This document shows, one piece after another, positions 6,506 through 62,475 of a stretch of 64,000 nucleotides of DNA. The DNA is taken from assembly GCA_005110385.1 (NCBI GenBank), contig DUDT01000009.1, forward strand, positions 1,660 through 65,659, read 5' to 3'. The stretch comes from Candidatus Melainabacteria bacterium. GTDB taxonomy: Bacteria > Cyanobacteriota > Vampirovibrionia > LMEP-6097. Positions within the stretch are counted from its first letter, which is position 1. Every line of letters begins with the position of its first letter. Both the position numbers and the translations under genes were made by a program. The notes beneath the pieces are model-generated. The model was not told where the DNA came from, searched no databases, and saw nothing but the letters and a program-made list of their open reading frames with translations.

Positions 6506-8134
6506 ATGCGAGCAATAGAGATTTACGATACTACACTTAGAGATGGCGCGCAGATGCGTGGCATCTCTTTTAGCGTCAATGATAAACTCAAAGTACTAAG
6601 GCTATTAGATGATATTGGTGTGGCTTTCGTAGAGGGCGGTTGGCCTGGGGCGAATCCGAAGGATGTAGATTTTTTTACTGAAGCAAAAAAGATTAAGCTG
6701 AAAAACACTCAGCTAGTAGCTTTTGGCAGTACTCGTAAAGCGAATACTAAGGTGGAGTCAGATCCTATATTAGCTGCTCTTTTGCGAGCGGAGACACAGG
6801 TGATCTGCATAGTTGGGAAAAGCTCTGCCCCGCAGGTTACCAATACTTTAAAGATTTCCCTAGCAAAGAATTTAGATATGCTCGCTGAAAGTATATCTTT
6901 TCTGAAATCAGAAGGCCGCCGAGTGATAATAGATGCTGAACATTTCTTTGATGGTTACGTGGCTGATTCTGCTTACTCGCTTAAGTTTGCTAAAATTGCG
7001 GTGGAAGCTGGGGCTGAAACCTTGGTTCTCTGTGATACTAATGGTGGCAGTTTACCCGAGCAGGTTTTTAAAATCACTAAAGAGATTACAGATGCTTATA
7101 AAGAGAAGCTTAAAATTGGTATTCATGCACATAATGACTGTGAGCTTGCGGTAGCTAACAGTATTAGAGCGGTGAGAGCTGGTGCTACTCAAGTGCAGGG
7201 AACCATTAATGGCTATGGAGAACGCTGTGGTAATGCGAATCTGATTTCTATAATTCCTAATCTGGAGCTTAAGTATACTGAAGAGAAATTAAAGTGCTTA
7301 CCTAAGGATAAGTTAAAACATTTGAGCAGTCTTTCTCATTCTGTCGCTGAAATAGCTAATCAGCACCACAGTGCCCATCAGCCTTTCGTCGGAGCTAGCT
7401 CCTTCGCTCATAAAGCTGGCTTGCATGCAAGTGCAATGAAGAAGCAGGACTTTAGTTATGAGCATATAGACCCTCTTTTAGTAGGTAATGCTACGAAGAT
7501 TATTATTTCAGAGCAGTCTGGCGTGAGTAATATACTAGATTGGCTACAGAAGAAAAAGCTTTCTCCTAAAGCGAATGATGAGATTATTGGAGAATTCGCT
7601 AAAACTGTTTTAGAGAGAGTGAAGAAGCTAGAGCATAAGGGATATAGCTTTGAGAATGCTGATGCGAGTTTAGAGTTAATGGTGCGTAAATTAATAGATG
7701 TAGAAGGCTCTGCTGAAACTAAACTCAAGGCTTATAAGCCTTACTTTAAGCTAGTGGAGCACAATGTATATATTTCAAATGGCGAGAAGACAGAGGCTAC
7801 GGTACGAATCGAAATAGCAGGTGAGGAAATCCACTCTGCGAGTGTGGGTAATGGTCCGGCTAATGCCTTAGATAAAGCTCTTAGAAAAGCTTTAGTAAGT
7901 TTTTATCCTAAGATAGAAGAGTTTCAGCTATTAGATTACAAGGTAAGGATTCAGGATAGTTCACTTGGAACGGCAGCTCTGACTAAGGTTCAGGTTAATA
8001 CTGGAAATTTAGCTGAGGATTGGGATACTATCGGCGTTAGCACTAATATTATAAAAGCTTCTTGGGATGCGATTGTTGATAGTATTGAATATGGTTTGAT
8101 CAAGTATGGTGTTAAACCGGTTGAATTCGCTTAG
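6506..8134 (+). CDS. cimA: Citramalate synthase / 2-isopropylmalate synthase family (with LeuA-type C-terminal regulatory domain)
   Basis: MRAIEIYDTTLRDGAQ start, HAHND and the LeuA_dimer-like tail. The track ORF starts at TTG 6485, but that extension is encoded by repeat copy A. Confidence 0.85.
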   Translation: MRAIEIYDTTLRDGAQMRGISFSVNDKLKVLRLLDDIGVAFVEGGWPGANPKDVDFFTEAKKIKLKNTQLVAFGSTRKANTKVESDPILAALLRAETQVICIVGKSSAPQVTNTLKISLAKNLDMLAESISFLKSEGRRVIIDAEHFFDGYVADSAYSLKFAKIAVEAGAETLVLCDTNGGSLPEQVFKITKEITDAYKEKLKIGIHAHNDCELAVANSIRAVRAGATQVQGTINGYGERCGNANLISIIPNLELKYTEEKLKCLPKDKLKHLSSLSHSVAEIANQHHSAHQPFVGASSFAHKAGLHASAMKKQDFSYEHIDPLLVGNATKIIISEQSGVSNILDWLQKKKLSPKANDEIIGEFAKTVLERVKKLEHKGYSFENADASLELMVRKLIDVEGSAETKLKAYKPYFKLVEHNVYISNGEKTEATVRIEIAGEEIHSASVGNGPANALDKALRKALVSFYPKIEEFQLLDYKVRIQDSSLGTAALTKVQVNTGNLAEDWDTIGVSTNIIKASWDAIVDSIEYGLIKYGVKPVEFA

Positions 8135-9344: not shown

Positions 9345-11345
9345 TTAGCTAAAAGCTTGAGCTAATTGCTTTTCCTGAGGCGTGTTTCTCAGTTGGGTTG
9401 TTGGTGCGATATTGTTAGCGGTGCTAGTCTGAATTTTCTCTTTGAGCGTATTCTTAAGATTAGCTGCTGATGCGATATTGCTCGTGAGATTAGAGTAAAT
9501 AGTATTAGCTTCTCGGGATTTTATTAACCAGTCTGTAACATTCAGTGGGGTTTTGAGAATACTCTTGACGGCTAGGAGGGCGGTTTTGCCGATGCCTGTA
9601 TCTTTATAACTTGCTAAGTGATCTGGTAATTCTTTCGCGAAAACTTCTTCTTCCTTCTCTTTAAATAATCCAGGTATGTCTTTTGGAGTGCGTCCTGTTA
9701 ATTTACTTGTGATTTTTTGAATGAGCCAGAAAGGACTCGAGACTGGGTTTAATTTTATTACAGCAGGATAAGTACCCACTGCGGCGTGGAAGTTTTTACC
9801 CCACCACATCCAGCCTTTTTTAAGGACGTTTATAAGTTCAGATAATGGAGGTTTTATTAGTGAATGAGAAACGAATTGGGTGTCATTATCAATAGCTCTC
9901 TTCTCTGCTTTTGGCATAAAGCTCTGTACGAAAGGTGGAGCGATGAATTCTACGAGCATATTCAATAGTATAGACTTGGTGGCAGGGTTGAGTATTTCCC
10001 CAGGTAGTAGATTTGATAAGCCTTTCATGAAATTTTGACACATAGGCATTAGTAGTTTTTTCGGAATAATATTATGGAAAGTTCCCATAAAAGATTCGCC
10101 TTTGCGAACTGATGCGTGTGCGTAGCTGGTCATAGCAGAGTCTATGCGATTTGCGTTACTAAGTATCATTGAGCCGAAGGCTTTTAGTGGAGTATTTGCA
10201 TCTTGGAAGCCAGTCGCTTGAGCTTTTTTATCTAATGTGAGTGCTGTTAAACCAAGGCTGGCCAGGGATGTTATGCCGAAATGAATAGGGTTGAATTTTG
10301 CTAGTGATTTCAGTTCTTCTTTGTCACCGTAAGAGTTTGTAGTATAGAGGGTTTTACCTTGCGCGTCTTTTAGTGTTTCACCAGGTGTAATGCCAAGAAG
10401 GTATTTATTTACATTATTAACAAATGGATCAAGGACTTTTTTAAGATTAAAGCCAGCTTCTTCTCTGACTAATTCACCATTGCCTTTATTTTTGAGCTTA
10501 AATTTTTTCTCGCCCTTTTCATTTTCTCCTCTTATCCATCCGATTAGCTTAGCTACACCAGTATCTTTCATGGCTTCGATTATGATCTGCTGTTCGGGAC
10601 TTGCTTCGCCTCCATGGTTGGAAGAGTTCGTAAGTATATTATTTTCTGCGGTAATAGTTCTTAAAATAAAAGTTAATGGTCTTGCGACCATGTCACCGAT
10701 AAGTGTATTCACTATTGGATTTTTTTTAGCAAATTCAGGGAAAGCTCGACGAAAAGCTGCTATGGATTGGTCTACGCCGATGTCGGTAACAAGGCGTGAT
10801 AGAAATGAATCTGAGAAAGTCTTTTCAATATTATTGTTTAAAGCATTATATTCTATACTATTTGGATCAATTTTCGCTGCTTCAAGTTTCTTAATCTGCT
10901 GAAGAGTAGTTTCTTTTTCTGTCTCCGAGAGGCTATCGGTTTCAAGAAGATTCTTCAACTCTTTACAGTACTCATCTAAATTGTTTGATAGTTTGGTTGC
11001 ATCACCTTCTTTGATGATTGCATTTACTACTGCTTCTGCAGACGAGCTGGTTAATAGAGCATTGGTCCAGGATTTTAGAACACTTTCCCAAAGAGAATAA
11101 GCAAAGCCTCGTGAATGTTCTTTTTCTTGGTGCTGAGTGTTTTTTTGTTTGGATTTTTCGGATTTACTAGCTCTGGAAAAGGCTTTGATATTGTTTTCGG
11201 CTGCAGGCTCTGCTTGTTTTAAACCTTGATTAAAAGCTTTAGCCGCGTTAAAAATCGTCCCAGTTGGCTCTGGGCTTGTTGCAGTATTTGGATTTATTCC
11301 TTGTTCTAGAAAGCTCTTGTTCGTACCTATAGAAGTACTAACCAA
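9345..11345 (-). CDS. Hypothetical 666-aa protein (orphan; polar disordered N-terminus)
   Basis: Long uninterrupted ORF with a TTG start 6 nt after GAGGGAGGG. I recognise no motif in it. Confidence 0.7.
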   Translation of the reverse strand: MVSTSIGTNKSFLEQGINPNTATSPEPTGTIFNAAKAFNQGLKQAEPAAENNIKAFSRASKSEKSKQKNTQHQEKEHSRGFAYSLWESVLKSWTNALLTSSSAEAVVNAIIKEGDATKLSNNLDEYCKELKNLLETDSLSETEKETTLQQIKKLEAAKIDPNSIEYNALNNNIEKTFSDSFLSRLVTDIGVDQSIAAFRRAFPEFAKKNPIVNTLIGDMVARPLTFILRTITAENNILTNSSNHGGEASPEQQIIIEAMKDTGVAKLIGWIRGENEKGEKKFKLKNKGNGELVREEAGFNLKKVLDPFVNNVNKYLLGITPGETLKDAQGKTLYTTNSYGDKEELKSLAKFNPIHFGITSLASLGLTALTLDKKAQATGFQDANTPLKAFGSMILSNANRIDSAMTSYAHASVRKGESFMGTFHNIIPKKLLMPMCQNFMKGLSNLLPGEILNPATKSILLNMLVEFIAPPFVQSFMPKAEKRAIDNDTQFVSHSLIKPPLSELINVLKKGWMWWGKNFHAAVGTYPAVIKLNPVSSPFWLIQKITSKLTGRTPKDIPGLFKEKEEEVFAKELPDHLASYKDTGIGKTALLAVKSILKTPLNVTDWLIKSREANTIYSNLTSNIASAANLKNTLKEKIQTSTANNIAPTTQLRNTPQEKQLAQAFS

Positions 11346-12128: not shown

Positions 12129-12705
12129 AATCGGCGAATATATAGAGCAGGCTAAGAACATACCGATGATTAATCAGAAAATGATTGATCCCGAGTACTT
12201 GATGAGAGCTTTTGAAGATCTTTACGCGACTATCCCAGAGGAAATAAAAGAGGCTAGGCAGCTGATTGAGAAGAGAGATAAGGAACTTACTGAAGCTAGG
12301 AAGCAGGCTGATGATCTTCTCACTAGGACTAAGCAAGAATGCGAAACTATGCTCATCAGAGCTAAAGACCAAGCGGAAAAGCTTTTAGATGAAAGCCAGA
12401 TAAAAAGATCGGCTGAACATGAAGCTAAAAGCCTGTTCAATGAGTGTAGTGAACATGCTAAAAGACTAACTAAAGACGCTGAATCAGATGCTGAGGCTAT
12501 TAGAATGCAAGCCATAGAAAAGGCTCAGAGATTTGAAGAGCAGGCGTTACTAAAAGCTAGAAGAATTAAAGAAGATGCTGATAATTACGCACAGCAGATT
12601 CTTAGCTATATAGAAAGTGATGTAGTTAGAAAAATAGATGAGCTGAACGCTAAGGGTAAAAGCTTTTTTTCAGATTTAAAAGAGAAAGATTTACACCTGT
12701 CATAA
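12103..12705 (+). CDS. Hypothetical coiled-coil protein (ATP-synthase-b-like charged heptads)
   Basis: 200-aa E/K/A-rich ORF overlapping the coaD end by 26 nt. No catalytic motif. Confidence 0.55.
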   Translation: MDIFSKLDEIGEYIEQAKNIPMINQKMIDPEYLMRAFEDLYATIPEEIKEARQLIEKRDKELTEARKQADDLLTRTKQECETMLIRAKDQAEKLLDESQIKRSAEHEAKSLFNECSEHAKRLTKDAESDAEAIRMQAIEKAQRFEEQALLKARRIKEDADNYAQQILSYIESDVVRKIDELNAKGKSFFSDLKEKDLHLS

Positions 12706-12810
12706 GAAGGGCGTGCAGTCAAACGAATAAGTTCAAGGCTGAATGCCCAAAAAATTTAATCATTATCCTAGAAAATAGACGGGATAATTTGCTAATATAA
12801 TAGTCTGCCT

Positions 12811-27040: not shown

Positions 27041-28309
27041 TTAACTGTTGAAGATTTTAACACCATTTTCTGTAATTATTTCACTAATTAATGAATTTGG
27101 CGTTATGTCGAATCCTGGGTTAAGGAACTTGACCTTAGTGACAGAATTTAGGTCTTGGCATTGTTCCCGAGCTTCAATTTCTGCATTTTCGTCGTCCTCA
27201 TGATCCTCATGTATGCTGTTATTCTTAATAAAAGTGCAGGCTTTGCCATTTATATGGCTAACCTCCTCTGTATTTCGATATTCTATTTCGATTTCATGAC
27301 CAGTCTTTAGATTTAAATCTATAGTGCTTTCTGGGGCGAGGACATAGAAAGGTATGCGGTGATGTTTTGCAAGAATGGCTACCTGGTAAGTACCTATTTT
27401 ATTTGCGACGTCGCCATTCAAGGTAATACGGTCACTGCCTACTACTACTAAATCGATCAGACCTTTATCCATAATAAAACCAGCCATGTTATCGCAGATC
27501 ATAGTAACGGGAATGTCCTCCTGTGCTAATTCCCAAGCAGTGAGACGAGAGCCTTGCTGGCGAGGGCGAGTTTCATCAGAATAAACCATGTTAAGTAAAC
27601 CTGCACGATGTAAACTTCTTATTAGACCTAGAGCAGTACCATAGCCACCTGTAGCTAAAGCACCAGCATTACAGTGAGTGAGAACGTTTAATTTACCTGT
27701 TTCTTTAATCTTTAGGGCTAAATCTTTCTTAACTAATTTTAGAGCATGTTCGGACATTGCCTTACAGCGATTATAATCATCTTCTTGAATCCAAATAGCT
27801 TTGTTTAAAAGTATCTGGTGTAGTTTTTCTAAGTCAGTATTTTGTTCAAGTGATATCTGTAACGCTTTATTTTCTATATTGCTGTTATGTTCTTGAATAG
27901 TGGCAGCCATTTCTCCTAATGCCCATGCTAGATTCACAGCAGTCGGACGCGTGGATAGTAGTCGGCTTGAGGCTTGGTTTAGAAAATTAATTAATTTATC
28001 TTTTGAAGATGGGTTTAGAGCAGCATTTTTTGTATTTTCATTGTTTTCATGATTTTTCTCTAAACATTGATAATTAGGGTTAGTCTGTATAAATTCCTGT
28101 AAAGCAAGCACCATGCCGTAAGCAGCAGCAATACCGATTAAAGGTGCCCCACGTAAAAGCATTTTCTCAATGGCAAGAGCCATATCTTCATGATTCTTTA
28201 TTTCAACCCACTTTAATTCATAGGGTAGAAGAGTTTGGTCAATAATAAACACAGATTGGCTTTCATGATTCCAGTAAATAGGAATAGTCTCAGTCTTCAG
28301 CGCTTGCAT
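27041..28309 (-). CDS. mtnA: S-methyl-5-thioribose-1-phosphate isomerase
   Basis: eIF-2B-related fold. Motifs RGAPLIGIAAAYG, TRPRQQGSRLTAWEL and VGSDRITLNGDVANKIGTY, plus two acidic insertions. Confidence 0.9.
   Translation of the reverse strand: MQALKTETIPIYWNHESQSVFIIDQTLLPYELKWVEIKNHEDMALAIEKMLLRGAPLIGIAAAYGMVLALQEFIQTNPNYQCLEKNHENNENTKNAALNPSSKDKLINFLNQASSRLLSTRPTAVNLAWALGEMAATIQEHNSNIENKALQISLEQNTDLEKLHQILLNKAIWIQEDDYNRCKAMSEHALKLVKKDLALKIKETGKLNVLTHCNAGALATGGYGTALGLIRSLHRAGLLNMVYSDETRPRQQGSRLTAWELAQEDIPVTMICDNMAGFIMDKGLIDLVVVGSDRITLNGDVANKIGTYQVAILAKHHRIPFYVLAPESTIDLNLKTGHEIEIEYRNTEEVSHINGKACTFIKNNSIHEDHEDDENAEIEAREQCQDLNSVTKVKFLNPGFDITPNSLISEIITENGVKIFNS
27157..27189 (-). repeat. AAACGCAGAA-type repeat embedded in an ORF (encodes ENAEIEAREQCQ)
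   Basis: ggcattgttcccgagcttcaatttctgcatttt is nearly identical to the copy inside the methyltransferase gene at 56795. Confidence 0.75.
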
Positions 28310-57133: not shown

Positions 57134-58387
57134 TTGAGACTCATCGATAGACTATTAATTATAAACGTAAGCTTAATCCTTGTATTCGGCTTAACTGCCC
57201 TTTCTAGCTCTGCTGGAGGTAAATTTTTCTTAAAACAGTTAATTTATATTCCGATTAGTTTAATCTTAGTTTATTTTACCTATAACTTTTGCTCTCTTGA
57301 ATTTTATAAACGCAGTGCAAATCTGATTTATTGGCTTAATATAGGTCTTTTGATCATACTTAAATTTTTTGGAACTACTCAGCTTGGCTCACAGAGATGG
57401 TTGATGATAGGCCCAGTCAGTGTTCAACCAAGTGAACTTGCGAAAATTTGTCTCATTGTCTTCTTAGCAAAAATCCTTTCACTGAAAGAGATTCGTACTT
57501 ATTTCGACATAGTGAAAGTCTTTGCTTATATTGCTTTGCCGTCACTATTGGTATTAATTCAGCCCGATCTCGGCACTACACTCGTTTACATAGCTATAAC
57601 TTTTGGTATGCTTTTTTGGGCTGGAGCTAAATTAATTCAGCTTTTAACTATCTGCTCACCCATGATATGTGCCATATGCTCATCAATTGGCTATAAAATT
57701 ATCGATTATCATAATACTTACATCGATCTGGTCATAACAGTTCCAGCTTTAATTTTTCTGATATTTTTTACAGTCTTAATAATTTTCCACTATAAAGTTT
57801 GGTCATCACCCTCTAAAACTTTAGTAACTATGATGTTACTCTTCGTTGAATTTATGGCGATTTTATACAGACCTTCAATTTGGGGATTGTTAAAGGATTA
57901 TCAACAGAAAAGATTAACTATATTTCTTGACCCTTACTCAGACCCGCTTGGCGCAGGTTATCATATTATTCAAAGTCTTTATGCTATTGGTAATGGCGGA
58001 TTTATCGGTACTGGACTTAGATCTGGAGATTTATCTCAAGGTAGTTTCGTCCCAGAACAGCATACTGACTTTATATTTTCACTAGTCGGTGAGGAACTTG
58101 GTTTTATCGGTACTGGCTGTGTAATTTTTCTTTACGCTCTACTCTGTATTCAAATTATTATAAGAGCTAGAAATTCTGATAATAAATTCCACTCGCTATT
58201 AGGCATCGGCATTTTTTCGATGTTTATTTTCCATATCTTTGTTAACATCGGCATGAATTTAAGTCTTATGCCAATTACTGGTGTACCACTGCCTTTTCTT
58301 AGTTATGGTGGGACATCACTTCTGGTGAATACTTTTCTTATGTCGCTGGTGGCTAAGGTTTATTCTGAAAACCAAAAAGGGGTTTAG
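57134..58387 (+). CDS. rodA: SEDS-family peptidoglycan glycosyltransferase, RodA-like
   Basis: TTG start, 417 aa. Motifs QPSELAKI, HTDFIFS and TGVPLPFLSYGGTS. Confidence 0.8.
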   Translation: MRLIDRLLIINVSLILVFGLTALSSSAGGKFFLKQLIYIPISLILVYFTYNFCSLEFYKRSANLIYWLNIGLLIILKFFGTTQLGSQRWLMIGPVSVQPSELAKICLIVFLAKILSLKEIRTYFDIVKVFAYIALPSLLVLIQPDLGTTLVYIAITFGMLFWAGAKLIQLLTICSPMICAICSSIGYKIIDYHNTYIDLVITVPALIFLIFFTVLIIFHYKVWSSPSKTLVTMMLLFVEFMAILYRPSIWGLLKDYQQKRLTIFLDPYSDPLGAGYHIIQSLYAIGNGGFIGTGLRSGDLSQGSFVPEQHTDFIFSLVGEELGFIGTGCVIFLYALLCIQIIIRARNSDNKFHSLLGIGIFSMFIFHIFVNIGMNLSLMPITGVPLPFLSYGGTSLLVNTFLMSLVAKVYSENQKGV

Positions 58388-58474
58388 CAGGGTGGTTTAG
58401 GTAGCTTCTCTCACTCGCCCCACACTGCGTGCGGGTCCCCATGCTCGTTCCCTAAGCTACCTAAACCACCCTGC
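58387..58474. repeat. GC-rich long-stem element X1 (perfect 21-bp inverted repeat, 46-nt loop)
   Basis: gcagggtggtttaggtagctt (58387-58407) pairs with aagctacctaaaccaccctgc (58454-58474). The loop shares GGGGACCC/GGGTCCCC and a covarying 7-bp hairpin with X2. Confidence 0.7.
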
Positions 58475-58562
58475 GTCCGTTGGGGGAGGAAAGAAGGAGG
58501 GATGTGATATCTGAGTGTGTGCGGGGATGATCCAAGGGGTGTTGCTGATTAATTAGCTTGGG

Positions 58563-60314
58563 GTGGTAGAATTTTTAGGCGTGAGGATAAAGTCTTTAAA
58601 ATTACAAGATCATCCTGTGCTTGGGGACTTGGAGCTGGATTTTACTATCGGGGACAGGGTTGCTGACAATATTATTATTGCTGGGGAGAATGGTTGCGGG
58701 AAGACTACTTTACTGAATGTGATTAATGATTTTTTTGAATTTATGAGAGCCTATTTTGAATCTAAATCTACGATTATGCCTAATTATGGCATTGAAATTC
58801 AACTAATTAAGCTCCCAAATTATATAGAACAAGACTTTGGTAAAAGTAGTATTCAGATCAAAATCGAAAATAAGGGAATAGTAATTAATCATGAATTACA
58901 AAAACAAGAAACAATAAATAGGCATTTTGTTTTATCTTTATTCCGAACAATTTTTTTGAAATCTAATTTTAATATTAATACTCAAGTATTTAAAACACTC
59001 CCTAATCGCCAATCCTATATATCCCATAACGATAAAGATAATCAAACTACAGAAGCACAAAAAATCAAAGAGTTAATTATGACATCTTACATTATTGATG
59101 CTCTATGTTTAAAACAGTTGGATAAATCACTTACCCTGGGAGAAGCCCTTAAAGTTAATCAATCTTCACTGCTAAATAGATTAGAAAAAACATTTTCTTT
59201 AACTCTGTCACTTTTTCCATTCAATTCTAGCGAGTGGGAAGTATATGTTGGATTAAATAAAAAATTTGTAAAATTAGAAGAACTTAGTTCTGGAGAAAAG
59301 CAGATGATTTTTAGAGGAGTCTATTTTTTACAAGCACTAGATTCTCATAAATCACTTGATGGCGAAAATAAAGATACATCTATAGATAATGTGATATGCC
59401 TAATAGATGAACCTGAAAATAGTTTACACCCTAGATGGCAAAAAGAAATATTAAAGTCACATAAATCTTTAGCTTCCAACTCATTCAATATACAAGAAGT
59501 TCAGATCTTGTTTTCTACCCACTCTCCATTTATAATCCATGAGGCAAATCCTCAAACGGATAAAGTTATAGTTCTTCAAAAAGATCAAGATGGGAAGATC
59601 ATAGTAGCTCAAGATCCTTTATTTGAGAGCTGTGATGGAGAGAAGCTTGTAGAAGCTGCTTTTTATATTAATTTTAGAAAAACCAATAAACCTCTAGTTA
59701 TTACAGAAGGTAAAACGGATAAACAAATTATAGAAACGGCTTGGAGTAAGCTTTACCCAAATGCAGAGATGCCTTTTGAGATTCATGATGCGGGTATTTA
59801 TCCAGATAAAATAAATGTTACAGATGGTAAGCAAGAAAGAAAAGGAGGAGCTAATCATATTACTTCATTACTTAGCTACTCTTTAAGATTTAATGAGGAT
59901 CGTATTATTGGTCTATTTGACAATGATCATGAGGGCAATAATGTCGAAATGCCTAAGCTTAAGAATAATAAATTTGAGTTGAAGAAAACTTCTAATTTTT
60001 CCTACTGTAAATACCCTGATAAAGATGTTTTTGGCTTATTATTGCCATGCCCAGATCATAGAAAAAATTATGTTTGCGAAGGTGCAAAAGCTAAAAAAAA
60101 GTTAGTAATAGAACACTATTTTAACGACATAATTCTGGAAAAACATAAGCTAAAGGGAGAAGCGTACGATGAAAATATATTTTTTATTAATGATGGAAAC
60201 AAAACAAAATTTGCAGAAGAAATAATTCAAACCCTCCCACCAGAAGACTTTTCTTCATTTAAAATATTATTTGATGCCTTAAAGCATTTACTGGAGCCAA
60301 GTGGTGAACAATAA
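58563..60314 (+). CDS. Fused ABC-type ATPase and Toprim/DUF4435-like nuclease (OLD-family or fused PARIS-like)
   Basis: Walker A GENGCGKTT, signature LSSGEKQ, Walker B CLIDEPENSLH and H-loop STHSP. The C-terminal half has ITEGKTDKQ and LFDNDHEG (Toprim E ... DxD). Confidence 0.7.
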   Translation: MVEFLGVRIKSLKLQDHPVLGDLELDFTIGDRVADNIIIAGENGCGKTTLLNVINDFFEFMRAYFESKSTIMPNYGIEIQLIKLPNYIEQDFGKSSIQIKIENKGIVINHELQKQETINRHFVLSLFRTIFLKSNFNINTQVFKTLPNRQSYISHNDKDNQTTEAQKIKELIMTSYIIDALCLKQLDKSLTLGEALKVNQSSLLNRLEKTFSLTLSLFPFNSSEWEVYVGLNKKFVKLEELSSGEKQMIFRGVYFLQALDSHKSLDGENKDTSIDNVICLIDEPENSLHPRWQKEILKSHKSLASNSFNIQEVQILFSTHSPFIIHEANPQTDKVIVLQKDQDGKIIVAQDPLFESCDGEKLVEAAFYINFRKTNKPLVITEGKTDKQIIETAWSKLYPNAEMPFEIHDAGIYPDKINVTDGKQERKGGANHITSLLSYSLRFNEDRIIGLFDNDHEGNNVEMPKLKNNKFELKKTSNFSYCKYPDKDVFGLLLPCPDHRKNYVCEGAKAKKKLVIEHYFNDIILEKHKLKGEAYDENIFFINDGNKTKFAEEIIQTLPPEDFSSFKILFDALKHLLEPSGEQ

Positions 60315-60396
60315 ATCAGAGAATTGGCTTAAAATAGCTAGATATTTCTGAGGACAAAACTACTCTTATATTAAAAGAAACAAGGAGAATATTTTC

Positions 60397-60747
60397 ATGG
60401 TTAGAAAAAAAACTGAACTAGAGTTAAAAGAACTCATTGATAAAGTCATCTCCTCTGTGACTGAGGGTTTTAATGTTGATGAAATTATTCTTTTTGGTTC
60501 TTACGCTAAAGGAACAGAGAATGAACTCAGCGACGTTGATATAGCAGTTATTTCTCCAGACCTTGAAATTAATAAATCGGTTTGCTCGAACGCTTTAAGA
60601 ATCAAGAAACAAGTTAAACTTTTTGAACCTTACTTACAGCTTTTGGCTTTTCCGTCGCAAACTTACTATTCAGAAGATTTTATAGATCCAGACTTCATTC
60701 GAGAGATAAAGAGAACGGGTAAGACTGTTTACCCAATGACAAGTTAG
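60397..60747 (+). CDS. Minimal nucleotidyltransferase (MNT/MntA-type)
   Basis: LFGSYAKGTENELSDVDIAV (GS-x10-DxD). AAGGAG SD upstream. Confidence 0.8.
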   Translation: MVRKKTELELKELIDKVISSVTEGFNVDEIILFGSYAKGTENELSDVDIAVISPDLEINKSVCSNALRIKKQVKLFEPYLQLLAFPSQTYYSEDFIDPDFIREIKRTGKTVYPMTS

Positions 60748-60851
60748 TATAGCTAAAATAATCTTTTTCTTCCTAGATAATTCAGTTTAAATAGATGGTA
60801 AAATAACCATATATTAGTATGGCTTATCTTGCATTCAATATAATTTATTGA

Positions 60852-61133
60852 ATGTAATTTGAATGGGATGATTTAAAAGATAAGGCAAATCAAATAAGCC
60901 ATAACGTTTCTTTTTGTGAATCACAGAGAGCGTTTTTGGATGTCAATCGTGTAATAGCTGAAGATATTAGTCATAGTAACGAAAATGAAAAAAGATATTT
61001 TTGTTTTGGTAAAGTAGATCATGGAATATTAACCGTTAGATTCACTATTAGAGATAACTCCATTCGTATAATTGGTGCTGGATTTTGGAGAAAAGGCAAA
61101 AAAATTTATGAAAAAGAAAACAGAAAAAATTAA
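60852..61133 (+). pseudogene. brnT: BrnT-family (DUF497) toxin gene with TAA at codon 2
   Basis: Reads ATG TAA TTT GAA TGG GAT GAT..., translating after the stop to FEWDDLKDKANQISHNVSFCESQRAF...RIIGAGFWRKG. The only downstream in-frame start is TTG at 60936. Confidence 0.6.
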
Positions 61134-61344
61134 ATATTCTAACGAAATAATTAATGCAAAAGTAATTAAGGACTTCCTCCCAAGACCAGAGGATTTAGTT
61201 TTAAAAGAAGATAATGTAAAAGTAACTCTAACGTTAAGTAAAAAAAGTGTAGATTTTTTCAAGCATGAAGCCAAAAAGCTTGATACACCTTATCAGCTAA
61301 TGATCCGCTCTTTATTAGACAAGTACGCTGAGAGTTTTGGGTAA
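61108..61344 (+). CDS. brnA: BrnA-type antitoxin (RHH/CopG-like)
   Basis: MKKKTEKIKYSNEI...VTLTLSKKSVDFFKHEAKKLDTPYQLMIRSLLDKYA, typical of BrnA. Overlaps the brnT 3' end by 26 nt. Confidence 0.7.
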   Translation: MKKKTEKIKYSNEIINAKVIKDFLPRPEDLVLKEDNVKVTLTLSKKSVDFFKHEAKKLDTPYQLMIRSLLDKYAESFG

Positions 61345-61427
61345 AAGAGACCTCGGTCATTCGTCCTCCTCGGGCTTGAAACTGCACGTTGTGCAGAGCG
61401 GTCTCTAAAAACTCCGACTTACTCAAC

Positions 61428-61511
61428 GGAGGCTATTAAATCATGAAGAGCGAAACTCGGGGACCCAAGCTATAGGCTTGGGGTGTAGCGAAGCATGGTT
61501 TAATAGCCTCC
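61428..61511. repeat. GC-rich long-stem element X2 (13-bp inverted repeat, 58-nt loop)
   Basis: ggaggctattaaa (61428-61440) pairs with tttaatagcctcc (61499-61511). The loop contains cggggaccc and the hairpin cccaagc-tatag-gcttggg. It is preceded by the stem agagacc/ggtctct (61347-61406). Confidence 0.7.
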
Positions 61512-61515
61512 CTAT

Positions 61516-62475
61516 TTATTTAACAAAAAGCTCCGGATCAACACTAGTCCCATAGAGATAAGTACCCCAGTGCAAATGAGGACCTGTCGAAATGCCAGTA
61601 TGACCCACCTCGCCAATCTTCTGTCCCTTCGTTACCATGTCACCTTTCTTTACGTCTATCTTACTTAAATGAAGATAGATGGAACTCAGTGCATGACCGT
61701 GGTCTATCAAAATAGTGTTGCCGTGAACTTGAAAACCATCTTTCTCTAAACCAGTTAAAGCGACCTTGCCATCAGCTGGAGCGAAGACTGGACTTCCCAT
61801 TTTACCAGCAAAGTCTAAACCTTTGTGATAGCTATCTATGGGACCTTTATTGTAAGATCGTTTCACGCCAAATGGACTTGATTTAACTGCTGTAGAAGGA
61901 TAAGAAAATTTACCCTGTGCATATTTCTCTTCTGTCTTCAATCTCAAAGCACTGCTGATTTCATTAATTTCTTTATTAGTAGCTTCTAGGGAGCTTTTAT
62001 CGGGATCTAAATAAATATACTGTATAGGCTTGCGATTATCTAAAACCTTTACTGGGATTTTTTCTTCCCAGCCTCCAGTCCTTGCAAGAATAACATAGTT
62101 ACCAGGCTTAGTTAAATTCTCGACCGGAATTAAAGCCTTGTAAGCTTTATCTCCTACTTGAAAAGCGAGAAAAGACTCTGAATTAAACCACACAAGAGGG
62201 TTTTTCTCAGCACCTATAATATCTACTTCAAAATACTGTCCCTGTTGCACAGTTGGTTTTTTAAGAGTCATAGATAGCGGTGTAGCATTTATGTTTACAG
62301 CTACTGCTTTAGGCTGTATCTGAGCAATCTCTGGTTTCACTGCTGGAGCTTGCTTAACATCGAAAGCGAAGGCATTATTGTAAAAACTTAAAACCGTTAA
62401 TATAGACAGAGAAGTGAAAAGAATAATCTTAAAAGAAAAAGTTTTCTTAATTACATAGTTTTTAGATGGCTGCAT
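61516..62475 (-). CDS. M23-family metallopeptidase
   Basis: Motifs HKGLDFAG and GHTGISTGPHLHWG, with an N-terminal signal anchor. Confidence 0.9.
   Translation of the reverse strand: MQPSKNYVIKKTFSFKIILFTSLSILTVLSFYNNAFAFDVKQAPAVKPEIAQIQPKAVAVNINATPLSMTLKKPTVQQGQYFEVDIIGAEKNPLVWFNSESFLAFQVGDKAYKALIPVENLTKPGNYVILARTGGWEEKIPVKVLDNRKPIQYIYLDPDKSSLEATNKEINEISSALRLKTEEKYAQGKFSYPSTAVKSSPFGVKRSYNKGPIDSYHKGLDFAGKMGSPVFAPADGKVALTGLEKDGFQVHGNTILIDHGHALSSIYLHLSKIDVKKGDMVTKGQKIGEVGHTGISTGPHLHWGTYLYGTSVDPELFVK

Follow-up and report, generated by a model that had tools for sequence, protein, structure and literature searches.

The palindromes X1 (58387..58474, motif on the minus strand) and X2 (61428..61511, plus strand) of the window (the 64-kb stretch of DNA analysed here) belong to a small family, hitherto undescribed, of palindromic insertion elements whose structure is conserved. 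Judging from sequence comparison, their most likely role, to which we give a probability of about 45%, would be that of domesticated gene-end hairpins of the REP/ERIC/SPRITE kind that terminate or insulate transcripts.

Architecture of X1 and X2

No other short-range inverted repeat in the 64-kb window is as long as X1 or X2. Re-measurement gave X1 the same dimensions as a preliminary description of this DNA, namely a perfect 21-bp inverted repeat around a 46-nt loop (P1 arms at 58387-58407 and 58454-58474). X2 had been described as a 13-bp repeat around 58 nt and is in fact longer in the stem, with 18-bp arms (61428-61445 and 61494-61511; 94% complementarity, one T.G pair) around 48 nt. The reported G+C richness holds (0.60 for X1 and 0.50 for X2 in a window of 0.36), as do the reported locations, X1 at the rodA stop and X2 between brnA and the convergent M23 gene.

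The common architecture proposed earlier is reproduced by RNA folding, which assigns both elements an identical dot-bracket structure. X1(-) folds at -54.9 kcal/mol (z = -7.3) and X2(+) at -43.4 kcal/mol (z = -7.0), none of 200 shuffles being equally stable in either case, and DNA parameters give the same outcome. An outer stem of 18-21 bp encloses purine-rich internal loops, and inside it lie two 2-bp helices, a 7-nt GGGGA bulge (58436-58442 in X1, TCCCCAT as read on the plus strand; TCGGGGA at 61457-61463 in X2) and a CCC...GGG hairpin, P3 (58419-58435 and 61464-61482). The arms of X1 and X2 differ in sequence and fold alike, and the inner hairpin pairs as CCCGCAC/GTGTGGG in X1 and as CCCAAGCT/GGCTTGGG in X2, both as first described. 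Within the window GGGGACCC occurs only in X1(-) and X2(+) (2 occurrences, 0.13 expected), and the core pattern CCCC-N9-17-GGGTCCCC-N3-4-YTCGYTC likewise has 2 occurrences against 0.00 expected.

A family with at least three locus types

The preliminary description had listed a second repeat family among its options, to be pursued by a covariance-model search and abandoned if neither further copies nor covariation appeared. Both appeared. A metagenome scan turned up a third locus type, X3, which stands alone after a GajB-like helicase gene; the matches listed in that scan represent three or more locus types, whose covariation is strong, and the option is thereby supported and extended. X1 scores 88.9 bits (E = 2.5e-22) in the covariance search. 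Model R1, built from X1 and X3 only, recovers X2 at 51.4 bits (E = 1.1e-11). In the combined alignment (A6), 96.6% of cells are paired vs 27-50% in slid controls, 16 of the 24 pairs carry compensatory changes, and none of 500 shuffles matches the covariation score. RNAalifold, run independently, predicts the same structure.

Copies are about 84-95 nt long. Their terminal arms (18-23 bp) are locus-specific, differing among X1, X2 and X3, while the asymmetric core is conserved: GARCGAR, 3-4 nt, GGGGA, the CCC...GGG hairpin and G-YG(W)AG-YGA. All family matches listed come from one uncultured genus-level clade of the Caenarcaniphilales, relatives of cyanobacteria that do not photosynthesise. With Rfam 15, the only gathering-score match in the window is a tRNA, and a search at E up to 10 gave X only a spurious mir-196 stem match (29.8 bits vs a gathering score of 55.4).

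Two copies are chimeric: X3 of L287 joins a left arm of L290 type to a right arm of L210 type, and X1 of L007 is a chimera as well. In L007 a second repeat, Y, interrupts X1 as well as X2, so at least one lineage can dispense with the elements. Y is a dispersed GC-rich repeat with ends AGAGACC...GGTCTCT that lies outside the X family. The window retains a remnant at 61346..61406 (no strand assigned), and BLAST places copies in L007, L162, L163, L091, L246 and others.

Position, insertion and selection at gene ends

Each locus type adjoins the end of a conserved gene. At rodA (57134..58387, plus strand; PF01098, E = 3e-89), a conserved host gene whose stop abuts X1, the G of the TAG stop is the first base of the element, so that P1 begins inside the stop; P1 of X3 begins inside the helicase TGA. 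X2 begins 5 nt past the stop (61516-61518) of the M23 peptidase gene (61516..62475, minus strand), a conserved host gene whose last codons the X2 insertion replaced, and the brnA stop (61342-61344) lies on the other side of X2 from this convergent gene. X1, X2 and X3 all point the same way with respect to the conserved gene upstream of them (rodA, M23 peptidase and GajB-like helicase, respectively), a rule of low statistical weight since it rests on three known locus types. All three border variable defence or toxin-antitoxin genes, with the variable DNA on the same side of each element and beginning 14-35 nt downstream.

X2 is an insertion. Two related strains, L162 and L163, have X1 and the accessory islet and lack X2, which is a separate insertion of about 98 bp in the M23 end. 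An AT-rich leader that arrived with it (61512..61524, minus strand; GTT AAA TAA ATAGG in M23 sense, read from the sequence) provides the current M23 stop and holds stop codons in all three frames. The displaced ancestral 3' end lies beyond X2 (61417..61427, minus strand; GTT GAG TAA GT in M23 sense, with GTA GAC TAG as its outgroup counterpart); there GTTGAGTAA is intact and matches GTAGACTAG of the outgroup. GTT flanks the insert on both sides (AAC at 61522-61524 and at 61425-61427), and X1 and X3 have GTT 1-2 nt upstream and 5-8 nt downstream.

Once inserted, the copies changed little. Four-fold sites of rodA, the ATPase gene, M23 and trpB have diverged by 0.2-0.34. Between the window and L091, X1 shows 1 difference in 88 nt, and within the L006 group 0 in 88; X2 differs at 2-5 of 84 nt between strains, and X3 at 3-9 of about 89 nt. 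All copies fall far below the neutral sites of neighbouring genes (P from 1e-2 to 1e-11), which points to purifying selection.

An intrinsic (Rho-independent) terminator is a GC-rich hairpin with a U-tract immediately after it. In gene sense, TTTTT follows X3 and TTTTATCC follows X2 in L006 and L088; there is no such tract after X1 or after X2 of the window. A consensus terminator scan does not call the X elements, whose loops, longer than 8 nt, exceed its setting. Wobble and mismatch variants do not favour one strand consistently across copies: those in the X1 inner hairpin fit the strand antisense to rodA better, and those in X3 the sense strand.

Accessory genes, rival readings and known repeats

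The accessory islet (58563..61344, plus strand) comprises genes for an ATPase with a Toprim-like C-terminal domain (58563-60314) and an MntA-like nucleotidyltransferase (60397-60747), a truncated brnT (60936-61133) and brnA (61072-61344). Between X1 and the ATPase gene lies a purine-rich tract, GTTGGGGGAGGAAAGAAGGAGGG..., with a strain-variable insertion (58475..58562, plus strand); a similar tract follows X3, its low complexity making homology tentative. Just upstream of the ATPase coding sequence, an extended -10-like motif, TGGTAGAAT (58564..58572, plus strand), is conserved in all relatives and suggests that the ATPase may have its own promoter downstream of X1; the consensus promoter scan, which demands a -35 hexamer, does not call it. 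At the helicase locus the cargo beside X3 is Avs4 (1093 bits), a SIR2-like gene, an HpaII restriction-modification system, or others.

The leading idea of the preliminary description, that X1 and X2 delimit a mobile cassette carrying the ATPase-Toprim and toxin-antitoxin genes, draws on their inverted orientation around the islet in the window and on L008, the closest outgroup, which has neither islet nor X. We reject it as highly improbable: the strains with X1 and islet and no X2 and the solitary X3 already contradict it, X2 inserted separately, the orientation of X tracks the conserved gene rather than the islet, the islet at the rodA locus is vertically inherited with neutral divergence like that of core genes, and homology breaks between strains fall within the ATPase gene, away from X1 and X2. 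No more credible is its proposal of a non-coding RNA belonging to the ATPase-Toprim defence system, which might for instance be retron-like. The ATPase resembles PtuA and, in its C-terminus, the Toprim domain of retron Ec67, and X1 lies just upstream of its gene, but unrelated insertions place the ATPase start anywhere from about 30 to about 330 nt away from X1, a tenfold range among strains, the gene apparently has its own promoter downstream of X1, and the genes beside X2 and X3 are unrelated; the contexts of X3, with their quite different cargo, contradict a system-specific RNA. A retron msr/msd has an adjacent reverse transcriptase and a1/a2 repeats around an RNA of about 150-250 nt. X is only about 88 nt long, and no reverse transcriptase domain was found among the flanking genes at any X locus.

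There are three further possibilities. X could be a site acting as DNA (a recombination or insertion landmark, cruciform or single-strand hairpin) for a recombinase or transposase, marking or promoting the entry of accessory DNA next to conserved genes and so helping to build defence hotspots. The variable DNA beside all three locus types, starting at a short distance on the same side, would fit, as would crossovers inside the element in the two chimeric copies, GTT at or near the ends of all three, and wobble pairs free of strand bias, as in a DNA palindrome. We nevertheless consider this unlikely, because hotspots exist without X in outgroups (L293 at the helicase locus; L008 and L164 at the rodA-M23 locus), the rodA-locus islet is vertical with its homology breaks in the ATPase gene rather than at X, locus-different outer arms ill suit a common DNA-binding enzyme, ordinary homologous recombination can account for the chimeras, and no X copy has a linked recombinase or transposase gene; the only tyrosine-recombinase-like gene (Phage_int_SAM_1 domain) is conserved, syntenic and about 5 kb off. 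It is likewise unlikely that the purine-rich strand (minus in X1, plus in X2) is the functional one, read from the islet side toward the conserved gene as a small structured RNA, a 3' UTR or an antisense element with a specific protein partner. That strand has internal loops of tandem G.A type (GA/GA, GAA/GUA, AAGA/GAAG), folds more stably than its complement (-54.9 vs -49.4 kcal/mol for X1, -43.4 vs -36.5 for X2), alone pairs a long-standing G.U of the X1 inner hairpin, and lies in that orientation at the 3' end of brnA (X2) and of Avs4 (X3 of L210); against this, no gene or predicted promoter drives X1, or X3 in L254, L287 and L290, the X3 stem variants favour the opposite strand, and X is without an Rfam match. 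A purely selfish MITE-like repeat, merely tolerated at gene ends, is again improbable. Such a repeat would explain the presence/absence polymorphism and short flanking direct repeat of X2, the disrupted copies tolerated in L007 and the co-occurrence and nesting of X with Y in the same intergenic spots, as reported for MITE clusters (PMC10969869). It does not explain why every copy is far more conserved than the neutral sites of adjacent genes, the compensatory changes in the stems, the very low copy number among the matches listed, or the variable arms around a conserved interior, the reverse of a transposase-recognised MITE. Prokaryotic MITEs measure <500 bp and end in inverted repeats of about 4-30 bp (PMC10969869), dimensions within which X falls (84-91 bp, arms 18-23 bp). 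MITEs are further characterised by target-site duplications, presence/absence polymorphism and many dispersed copies in each genome, and by termini that are common to the copies, are recognised by the transposase and resemble those of an autonomous IS element. X1, X2 and X3 share no terminus, and about 0.5 Mb of related contigs contained no IS element with ends matching X.

We favour the gene-end hairpin. The comparisons show the structure, covariation, family membership, insertion polymorphism, position with orientation, and selection; we infer that the selected function acts on RNA, as termination or insulation. In this view X1 and X2 are two of at least three paralogous GC-rich palindromes, each inserted in or right at the final codons of a conserved gene at the edge of a variable stretch and then retained through purifying selection. 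Within the transcript, the hairpin would end or insulate transcription and protect the 3' terminus of the housekeeping mRNA, keeping that mRNA apart from adjoining accessory genes with their own promoters. In favour of this are the terminator-like tails after X3 and after X2 of L006 and L088, and the -10-like motif downstream of X1. Against it count the missing U-tract after X1 and after X2 of the window, the negative terminator scan, the inconsistent strand preference of the variants and the disrupted copies of L007. A plain terminator would also have no use for a specific binding partner, and the conserved sequence of the asymmetric core suggests that X has one.

Comparable gene-end roles have been reported or proposed for REP, ERIC, Correia and SPRITE repeats (PMC3049150, PMC10969869, PMC3733652, PMC3116915). 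SPRITE, an 18-bp duplex with some 30 copies and an enrichment at the 3' ends of CDSs and in the gaps between convergent genes, is, like X, a low-copy, lineage-restricted small repeat with a stem of about 18 bp, found near CDS 3' ends, often between convergent genes, and clustered with other small repeats, for which co-option as a terminator has been suggested (PMC3049150). However, SPRITE is AT-rich and conserved in sequence with a long U-rich tail, whereas X is GC-rich in an AT-rich genome, has a conserved core within locus-variable arms and shows a U-tract in some copies only. ERIC/IRU and Correia (NEMIS) elements resemble X as palindromes inserted at gene ends; they are about 100-150 bp long, are co-transcribed with the neighbouring gene and influence mRNA stability and RNase processing in a way that depends on orientation (PMC10969869). 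They differ from X in that their terminal inverted repeats are conserved, they carry TA duplications and their copies number in the tens to hundreds; X has variable arms, a GTT flank and about three locus types, a distinction drawn from the descriptions of those families. REP/REPIN palindromes also lie right after stop codons, and REP is thought to function in termination and mRNA protection (PMC3733652, PMC3116915). REP units, however, are 20-40 nt long, tagged with GTAG or CGTC, high in copy number and mobilised by RAYT transposases, and REPINs have conserved arms and a variable loop, the opposite of X; at 85-91 nt, with no tag common to its copies, X does not fit the REP/REPIN type.

Integron attC sites share with X a conserved structure over variable sequence, a hairpin with internal loops and bulged bases, a place right after an ORF stop near small accessory, toxin-antitoxin or defence genes, and GTT at the junctions. 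In attC, the R''/R' core sites (RYYYAAC...GTTRRRY) make the stem base. The stem bases of X are GCAGGG.../...CCCTGC (X1), GGAGGC.../...GCCTCC (X2) and GACTTTGC.../...GCAAAGTC (X3); read directly, those of X1 and X3 hold no R''/R' boxes, and only X2 has near-matches (ATTAAAC/GTTTAAT), which lie inside the stem. The conserved inner core of X has no counterpart in attC. An attC array is also rejected: X1 and X2 are mutually inverted, X3 is single, and there is neither an integron integrase nor single-ORF cassettes.

The upkeep of defence islands at fixed hotspots beside housekeeping genes is poorly understood, and here a covariation-supported, selected element sits exactly at the gene/islet junction of two separate hotspots in a barely studied lineage. 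It is conceivable, if rather unlikely, that X is a dedicated structured boundary element of defence hotspots, a hairpin (DNA or RNA) at the stop of the anchoring gene that serves as landing or crossover site for cargo or as insulator of the host gene; defence islands would then be organised by a novel class of cis element with no relation to attC or att. If X is an insulator or terminator, it would show hosts domesticating small repeats to wall off imported genes, and an X that acts as DNA would add a new factor to island assembly. Either way, an alignment, a model and coordinates define X well as a new structured motif for Melainabacteria-type genomes.

Architecture and family membership of X1 and X2

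X1 (58387-58474, minus strand), which abuts the rodA stop, and X2 (61428-61511, plus strand), which lies between brnA and the convergent M23 peptidase gene, bracket an islet of accessory genes encoding an ATPase-Toprim protein, an MntA-like nucleotidyltransferase, BrnT and BrnA. Their placement with respect to rodA, brnA and M23 agrees with the preliminary description, as does their G+C richness in an AT-rich setting (0.60 for X1 and 0.50 for X2, against 0.36 for the window). X1 is, as described there, a perfect 21-bp inverted repeat (58387-58407 and 58454-58474) enclosing 46 nt. For X2 the inverted repeat stands, but its length had been underestimated at 13 bp: it measures 18 bp (61428-61445 and 61494-61511, with one T.G) and encloses 48 nt. 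The two elements are the longest short-range inverted repeats of the 64-kb window.

RNA folding assigned X1 (minus strand) and X2 (plus strand) the same architecture, with fold z-scores of -7.3 and -7.0, respectively, and DNA folding parameters gave the same picture. The outermost layer is the outer stem P1, inside which lie a symmetric purine-rich internal loop (AGGGA/GAGAG or AAGA/GAAG) and then a 2-bp helix, a small GA-type loop and a second 2-bp helix. On the 5' side there follows a 7-nt bulge with GGGGA at its end, and the innermost part is the hairpin P3, of 7-8 bp with a CCC start, a GGG end and a 3-nt loop. The motif GGGGACCC is confined to X1 and X2 in the window (2 occurrences versus 0.13 expected), and a composite core pattern of 33-36 nt likewise occurs twice versus 0 expected. 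To the eye, the motif is reminiscent of K-turn, sarcin-ricin, twister or group II domain 5 motifs, but no such likeness held for all three known copies and none had Rfam support.

The third copy, X3, came from one metagenome scan with the core pattern, in which most matches were chance ones in GC-rich DNA; a hairpin filter left this third locus type, in AT-rich contigs, at the end of a GajB-like helicase gene. Around the same core as in X1 and X2, X3 has an inner hairpin CCCACGC/GCGTGGG and an outer stem that differs again (GACTTTGCCCTAAG.ACTTGC). A covariance model was built from an alignment of X1 and X3 variants only, with X2 left out, and this model found X2 with 51-57 bits (E ~1e-11 to 1e-12). 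This recovery makes X2 an independent family member. The further member X3 and the match to X2 bear out the suggestion that these elements form a second repeat family, of at least three locus types.

X1 and X2 are identical across all contigs with an identical M23 protein. In four related contigs (L006, L088, L162 and L163), the X1 outer stem carries three double changes that preserve pairing, and in a fifth (L091) the G.U pair of the inner hairpin has become A-U. A model-guided alignment of 10 distinct sequences, drawn from three paralogous loci and their strain variants and itself fitted to the model, had 96.6% paired cells versus 27-50% when partners were slid by 1-3 columns, both-sided changes in 16 of 24 pairs, and a covariation score matched by 0 of 500 shuffles, a pattern that a DNA palindrome would give just as an RNA would. 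RNAalifold independently predicted the same structure.

Searches for further relatives of X were negative. With filters off, the covariance model found no further copy in the window, the best other match (17 bits, E = 0.055) falling within a coding region. At the Rfam gathering score the sole match in the window was a tRNA elsewhere, with none at X, and relaxing the search to E up to 10 added a spurious miRNA-stem match and nothing real; X thus matches no Rfam family. Two scans of viral contigs with core patterns returned chance matches in GC-rich phages that had no hairpin, and one of these patterns (…GGGGYGWRG) was narrower than meant, fitting X2-type cores only and not X1. Literature searches on Caenarcaniphilales repeats or comparable gene-end elements yielded nothing specific.

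Placement, distribution and constraint

All three locus types share their setting. In each, 0-5 nt separate the start of the element from a conserved gene's stop, and the orientation to that gene is constant, with the C-rich strand as gene sense; each host gene has a GTT (Val) codon directly before its stop or one codon earlier; and each element borders DNA of variable defence or toxin-antitoxin content. A purine-rich tract (GTTGGGGAGAGAGGAGGAT-like), of low complexity and uncertain homology, follows X1 and X3.

The host, an uncultured freshwater bacterium, belongs to the Caenarcaniphilales (Melainabacteria/Vampirovibrionia). Its RodA has its best genome match in 'Candidatus Caenarcanales bacterium DT_14' (73% identity), and homologues are listed under names like 'Cyanobacteria bacterium REEB446'. 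In every relative with RodA of at least 90% identity (L006, L007, L088-L091, L162 and L163), X1 and the ATPase gene occupy the same place. Neither X nor the islet was found in the more distant L008 (RodA 73%), L164 (66%) and L165 (64%), and the covariance model had 0 matches in outgroup contigs (L008, L009, L164, L165 and L293-L295) and 0 across rodA loci, cyanobacterial and other, totalling 1.16 Mb.

When the window is compared with its relatives, divergence at four-fold-degenerate sites (d4) is 0.2-0.34 for rodA, ATPase, M23 and trpB. X1 differs between the window and L091 at 1 of 88 positions (rodA d4 0.34) and within the L006 group at 0 of 88 (d4 up to 0.195), X2 differs at 2-5 of 84 (M23 d4 ~0.31), and X3 at 3-9 of ~89 (helicase d4 0.16-0.25). 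Divergence in all three is well under the neutral expectation (P 1e-2 to 1e-11). X1 occurs as two discrete haplotypes whose differences are mainly compensatory pairs. Judging by these comparisons, pairing and core sequence are maintained, unlike in a decaying repeat. Against an essential role, disrupted copies are tolerated in L007, and the X3 of L287 has arms from different haplotypes.

That X3 copy (L287 11493-11583) is chimeric: it joins an L290-type left arm to an L210-type right arm, and the two fail to pair in their middle part. X1 in L007 (9811-9990) combines a left arm of the window type with a right-arm remnant of the L006 type. The two chimeric copies imply recombination between haplotypes inside the X element. 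In L007 the disruption involves Y, a different, dispersed GC-rich inverted-repeat element of ~115-125 bp (GGGACTGCTC...GAGCAGTCCC), which replaced the 3' half of X1 and severed the left arm of X2; its copies at X1 and beside X2 (9863-9977 and 12665-12786) are in opposite orientations. Y occurs at many intergenic sites in the clade (L162 5132-5236; L163 5549-5658; L246 3776-3894), with a remnant at 61346-61406 and a fragment at 27172-27213 in the window. Y is also found in L246 and L254, which links the X3 contigs to the window lineage.

The rodA-M23 locus and the helicase hotspot

Comparison of rodA-to-M23 synteny revealed a site empty of X2 in which the islet is still present: L162 and L163 keep rodA, X1, the ATPase gene and brnA, X2 is absent, and M23 ends within 6 nt of brnA. 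Just past X2 in the window, the M23-sense sequence GTT GAG TAA GT matches the outgroup M23 end GTA GAC TAG. An ancestral-like M23 end thus lies beyond X2, and the old gene end has therefore been displaced. The insert consists of AAATAAATAGG + X2 + GTT, so that GTT stands on both sides, and its AT-rich leader provides the new M23 stop, with stops in all three frames. By this comparison, X2 is an insertion. Insertion of a tiny core into a pre-existing terminator stem was rejected: the empty X2 site has no outer stem.

Inter-strain DNA homology extends unbroken from rodA across X1 and 175 nt into the ATPase gene; its only gap is the central ATPase (58737-59400), after which it resumes. The neutral divergence of islet genes resembles that of core genes. 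Within the clade, the islet has therefore been inherited vertically, and neither X1 nor X2 marks a recombination border of it.

Several features of the islet were observed along the way. The stretch without homology (~660 nt) lies inside the ATPase-Toprim gene (58563-60314), whose ends are 81-97% identical, and the protein is 57-67% identical between strains versus at least 90% for RodA; the central ATPase is apparently a hypervariable or swapped domain in an otherwise vertically inherited defence gene. Residues 365-576, which form the C-terminal domain, match the Toprim endonuclease segment of NF038237, a model for the retron Ec67 RT-endonuclease fusion (E = 1.5e-10). PtuA and AriA models are the nearest to the N-terminal part, and no reverse transcriptase was found near the gene. 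The DNA directly after X1 is a hot spot of small insertions (0 to ~300 nt among strains); in L091, an additional ~235-300 bp (7776-8010) separates X1 from the ATPase promoter and contains another inverted-repeat element, TTAAGGATCCACT...AGTGGATCCTTAA. The MntA-like nucleotidyltransferase gene (60397-60747) lacks a HepT-type partner. The window and L007 carry it, L163 retains a short 3'-end remnant, and L006, L088 and L162 do not have it; it is therefore a presence/absence polymorphism inside the islet. In brnT (60860-61133) the window reads ATG TAA where L006 has ATG CAA TTT GAA TGG... (93-aa BrnT), a nonsense change at codon 2 that leaves an ORF of 65 aa starting at TTG; L001-L004 have this 65-aa gene call as well. 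The toxin gene brnT is probably inactivated, with brnA intact. The brnT-brnA region (60783-61347) is 97% identical to L006, L088 and L162 versus 85-92% for flanking core genes, and BrnA is 100% identical to that of the same three contigs, which could reflect strong constraint or recent exchange of the module.

X3 starts within the TGA stop of a UvrD-type helicase of 465-497 aa (E = 2e-170 to the GajB model), which adjoins dapF in all strains and one outgroup. Downstream of X3 lie Avs4 in L210 (1093 bits), a SIR2-like and a Schlafen/AlbA_2 gene in L254, an HpaII-type restriction-modification system in L287 and other genes in L268 and L290; sequence common to the strains stops ~30-35 nt past X3. 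In the outgroup L293 this hotspot is also present but has no X3, and its cargo comprises a RecQ-like gene, an AAA ATPase and a methylase; the helicase there ends ...YDLL-TAA, overlapping a convergent gene. The hotspots predate X. This defence hotspot, of strain-specific content, lies between the dapF-adjacent helicase and a T2SSE (pilB-like) gene (L210 1628-6304; L254 9104-11483; L287 11794-14796; L293 3986-8652).

Possible nature of the X elements

The reading we prefer, at a probability of roughly 0.45, is that X is a domesticated small insertion element of the REP/ERIC/Correia/SPRITE kind. As a gene-end hairpin it would terminate or insulate transcription and would protect the 3' end. Such a hairpin is favoured because of the stop-codon placement, the fixed orientation to the upstream gene, the long stable stem, the U-tracts after X3 and some X2 copies, the frequent convergent arrangement and TGGTAGAAT, a conserved extended -10-like motif for the ATPase gene a short way past X1. 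It does not account for the missing U-tract at X1 or for the asymmetric, sequence-conserved core, which suggests a specific partner.

The main rival, which we regard as unlikely, is that X acts at the DNA level at hotspot borders. It is supported by the fact that X lies exclusively beside variable defence DNA, by crossovers within X and by its flanking GTT, but hotspots exist without X, no recombinase is linked to X and the arms are locus-specific. Next in rank, and improbable, is an RNA from the purine-rich strand (minus for X1, plus for X2). This strand folds better, has RNA-like tandem G.A loops and is the only one on which the old G.U of the X1 hairpin is a pair. However, as indicators of the transcribed strand, G.U versus A.C variants conflict (single-site stem variants of X3 are G.U on the opposite strand, and X2 has one each way), and no promoter for the purine-rich strand was predicted at X1. 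An inert MITE ranks below this RNA and is doubtful. X fits a MITE in size and terminal repeats, and X2 is insertion-polymorphic, but X lacks shared terminal repeats and a known parent IS element. Two ideas from the preliminary description now seem very improbable. Ends of a mobile cassette are contradicted by the islet without X2 in L162 and L163 and by X3, and a system-specific or retron-like RNA is contradicted because no reverse transcriptase is present, the spacing varies and the neighbours are unrelated. A retron RNA was rejected for X, as was attC (the stem base has no R boxes, and neither an integrase nor an array is present).

For the domesticated insertion element, the closest analogue is SPRITE, a low-copy repeat with an 18-bp duplex that is over-represented at the 3' ends of CDSs and between convergent genes and has been proposed as a co-opted terminator (PMC3049150). 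ERIC and Correia elements alter mRNA stability and RNase processing (PMC10969869). X differs from REP/REPIN elements in having the wrong size, no tag and variable instead of conserved arms. X appears to work like known gene-end palindromic repeats and yet is a distinct, undescribed family. Its layout is unusual in that a conserved core is combined with free arms, strong constraint and very few copies (at least three locus types).
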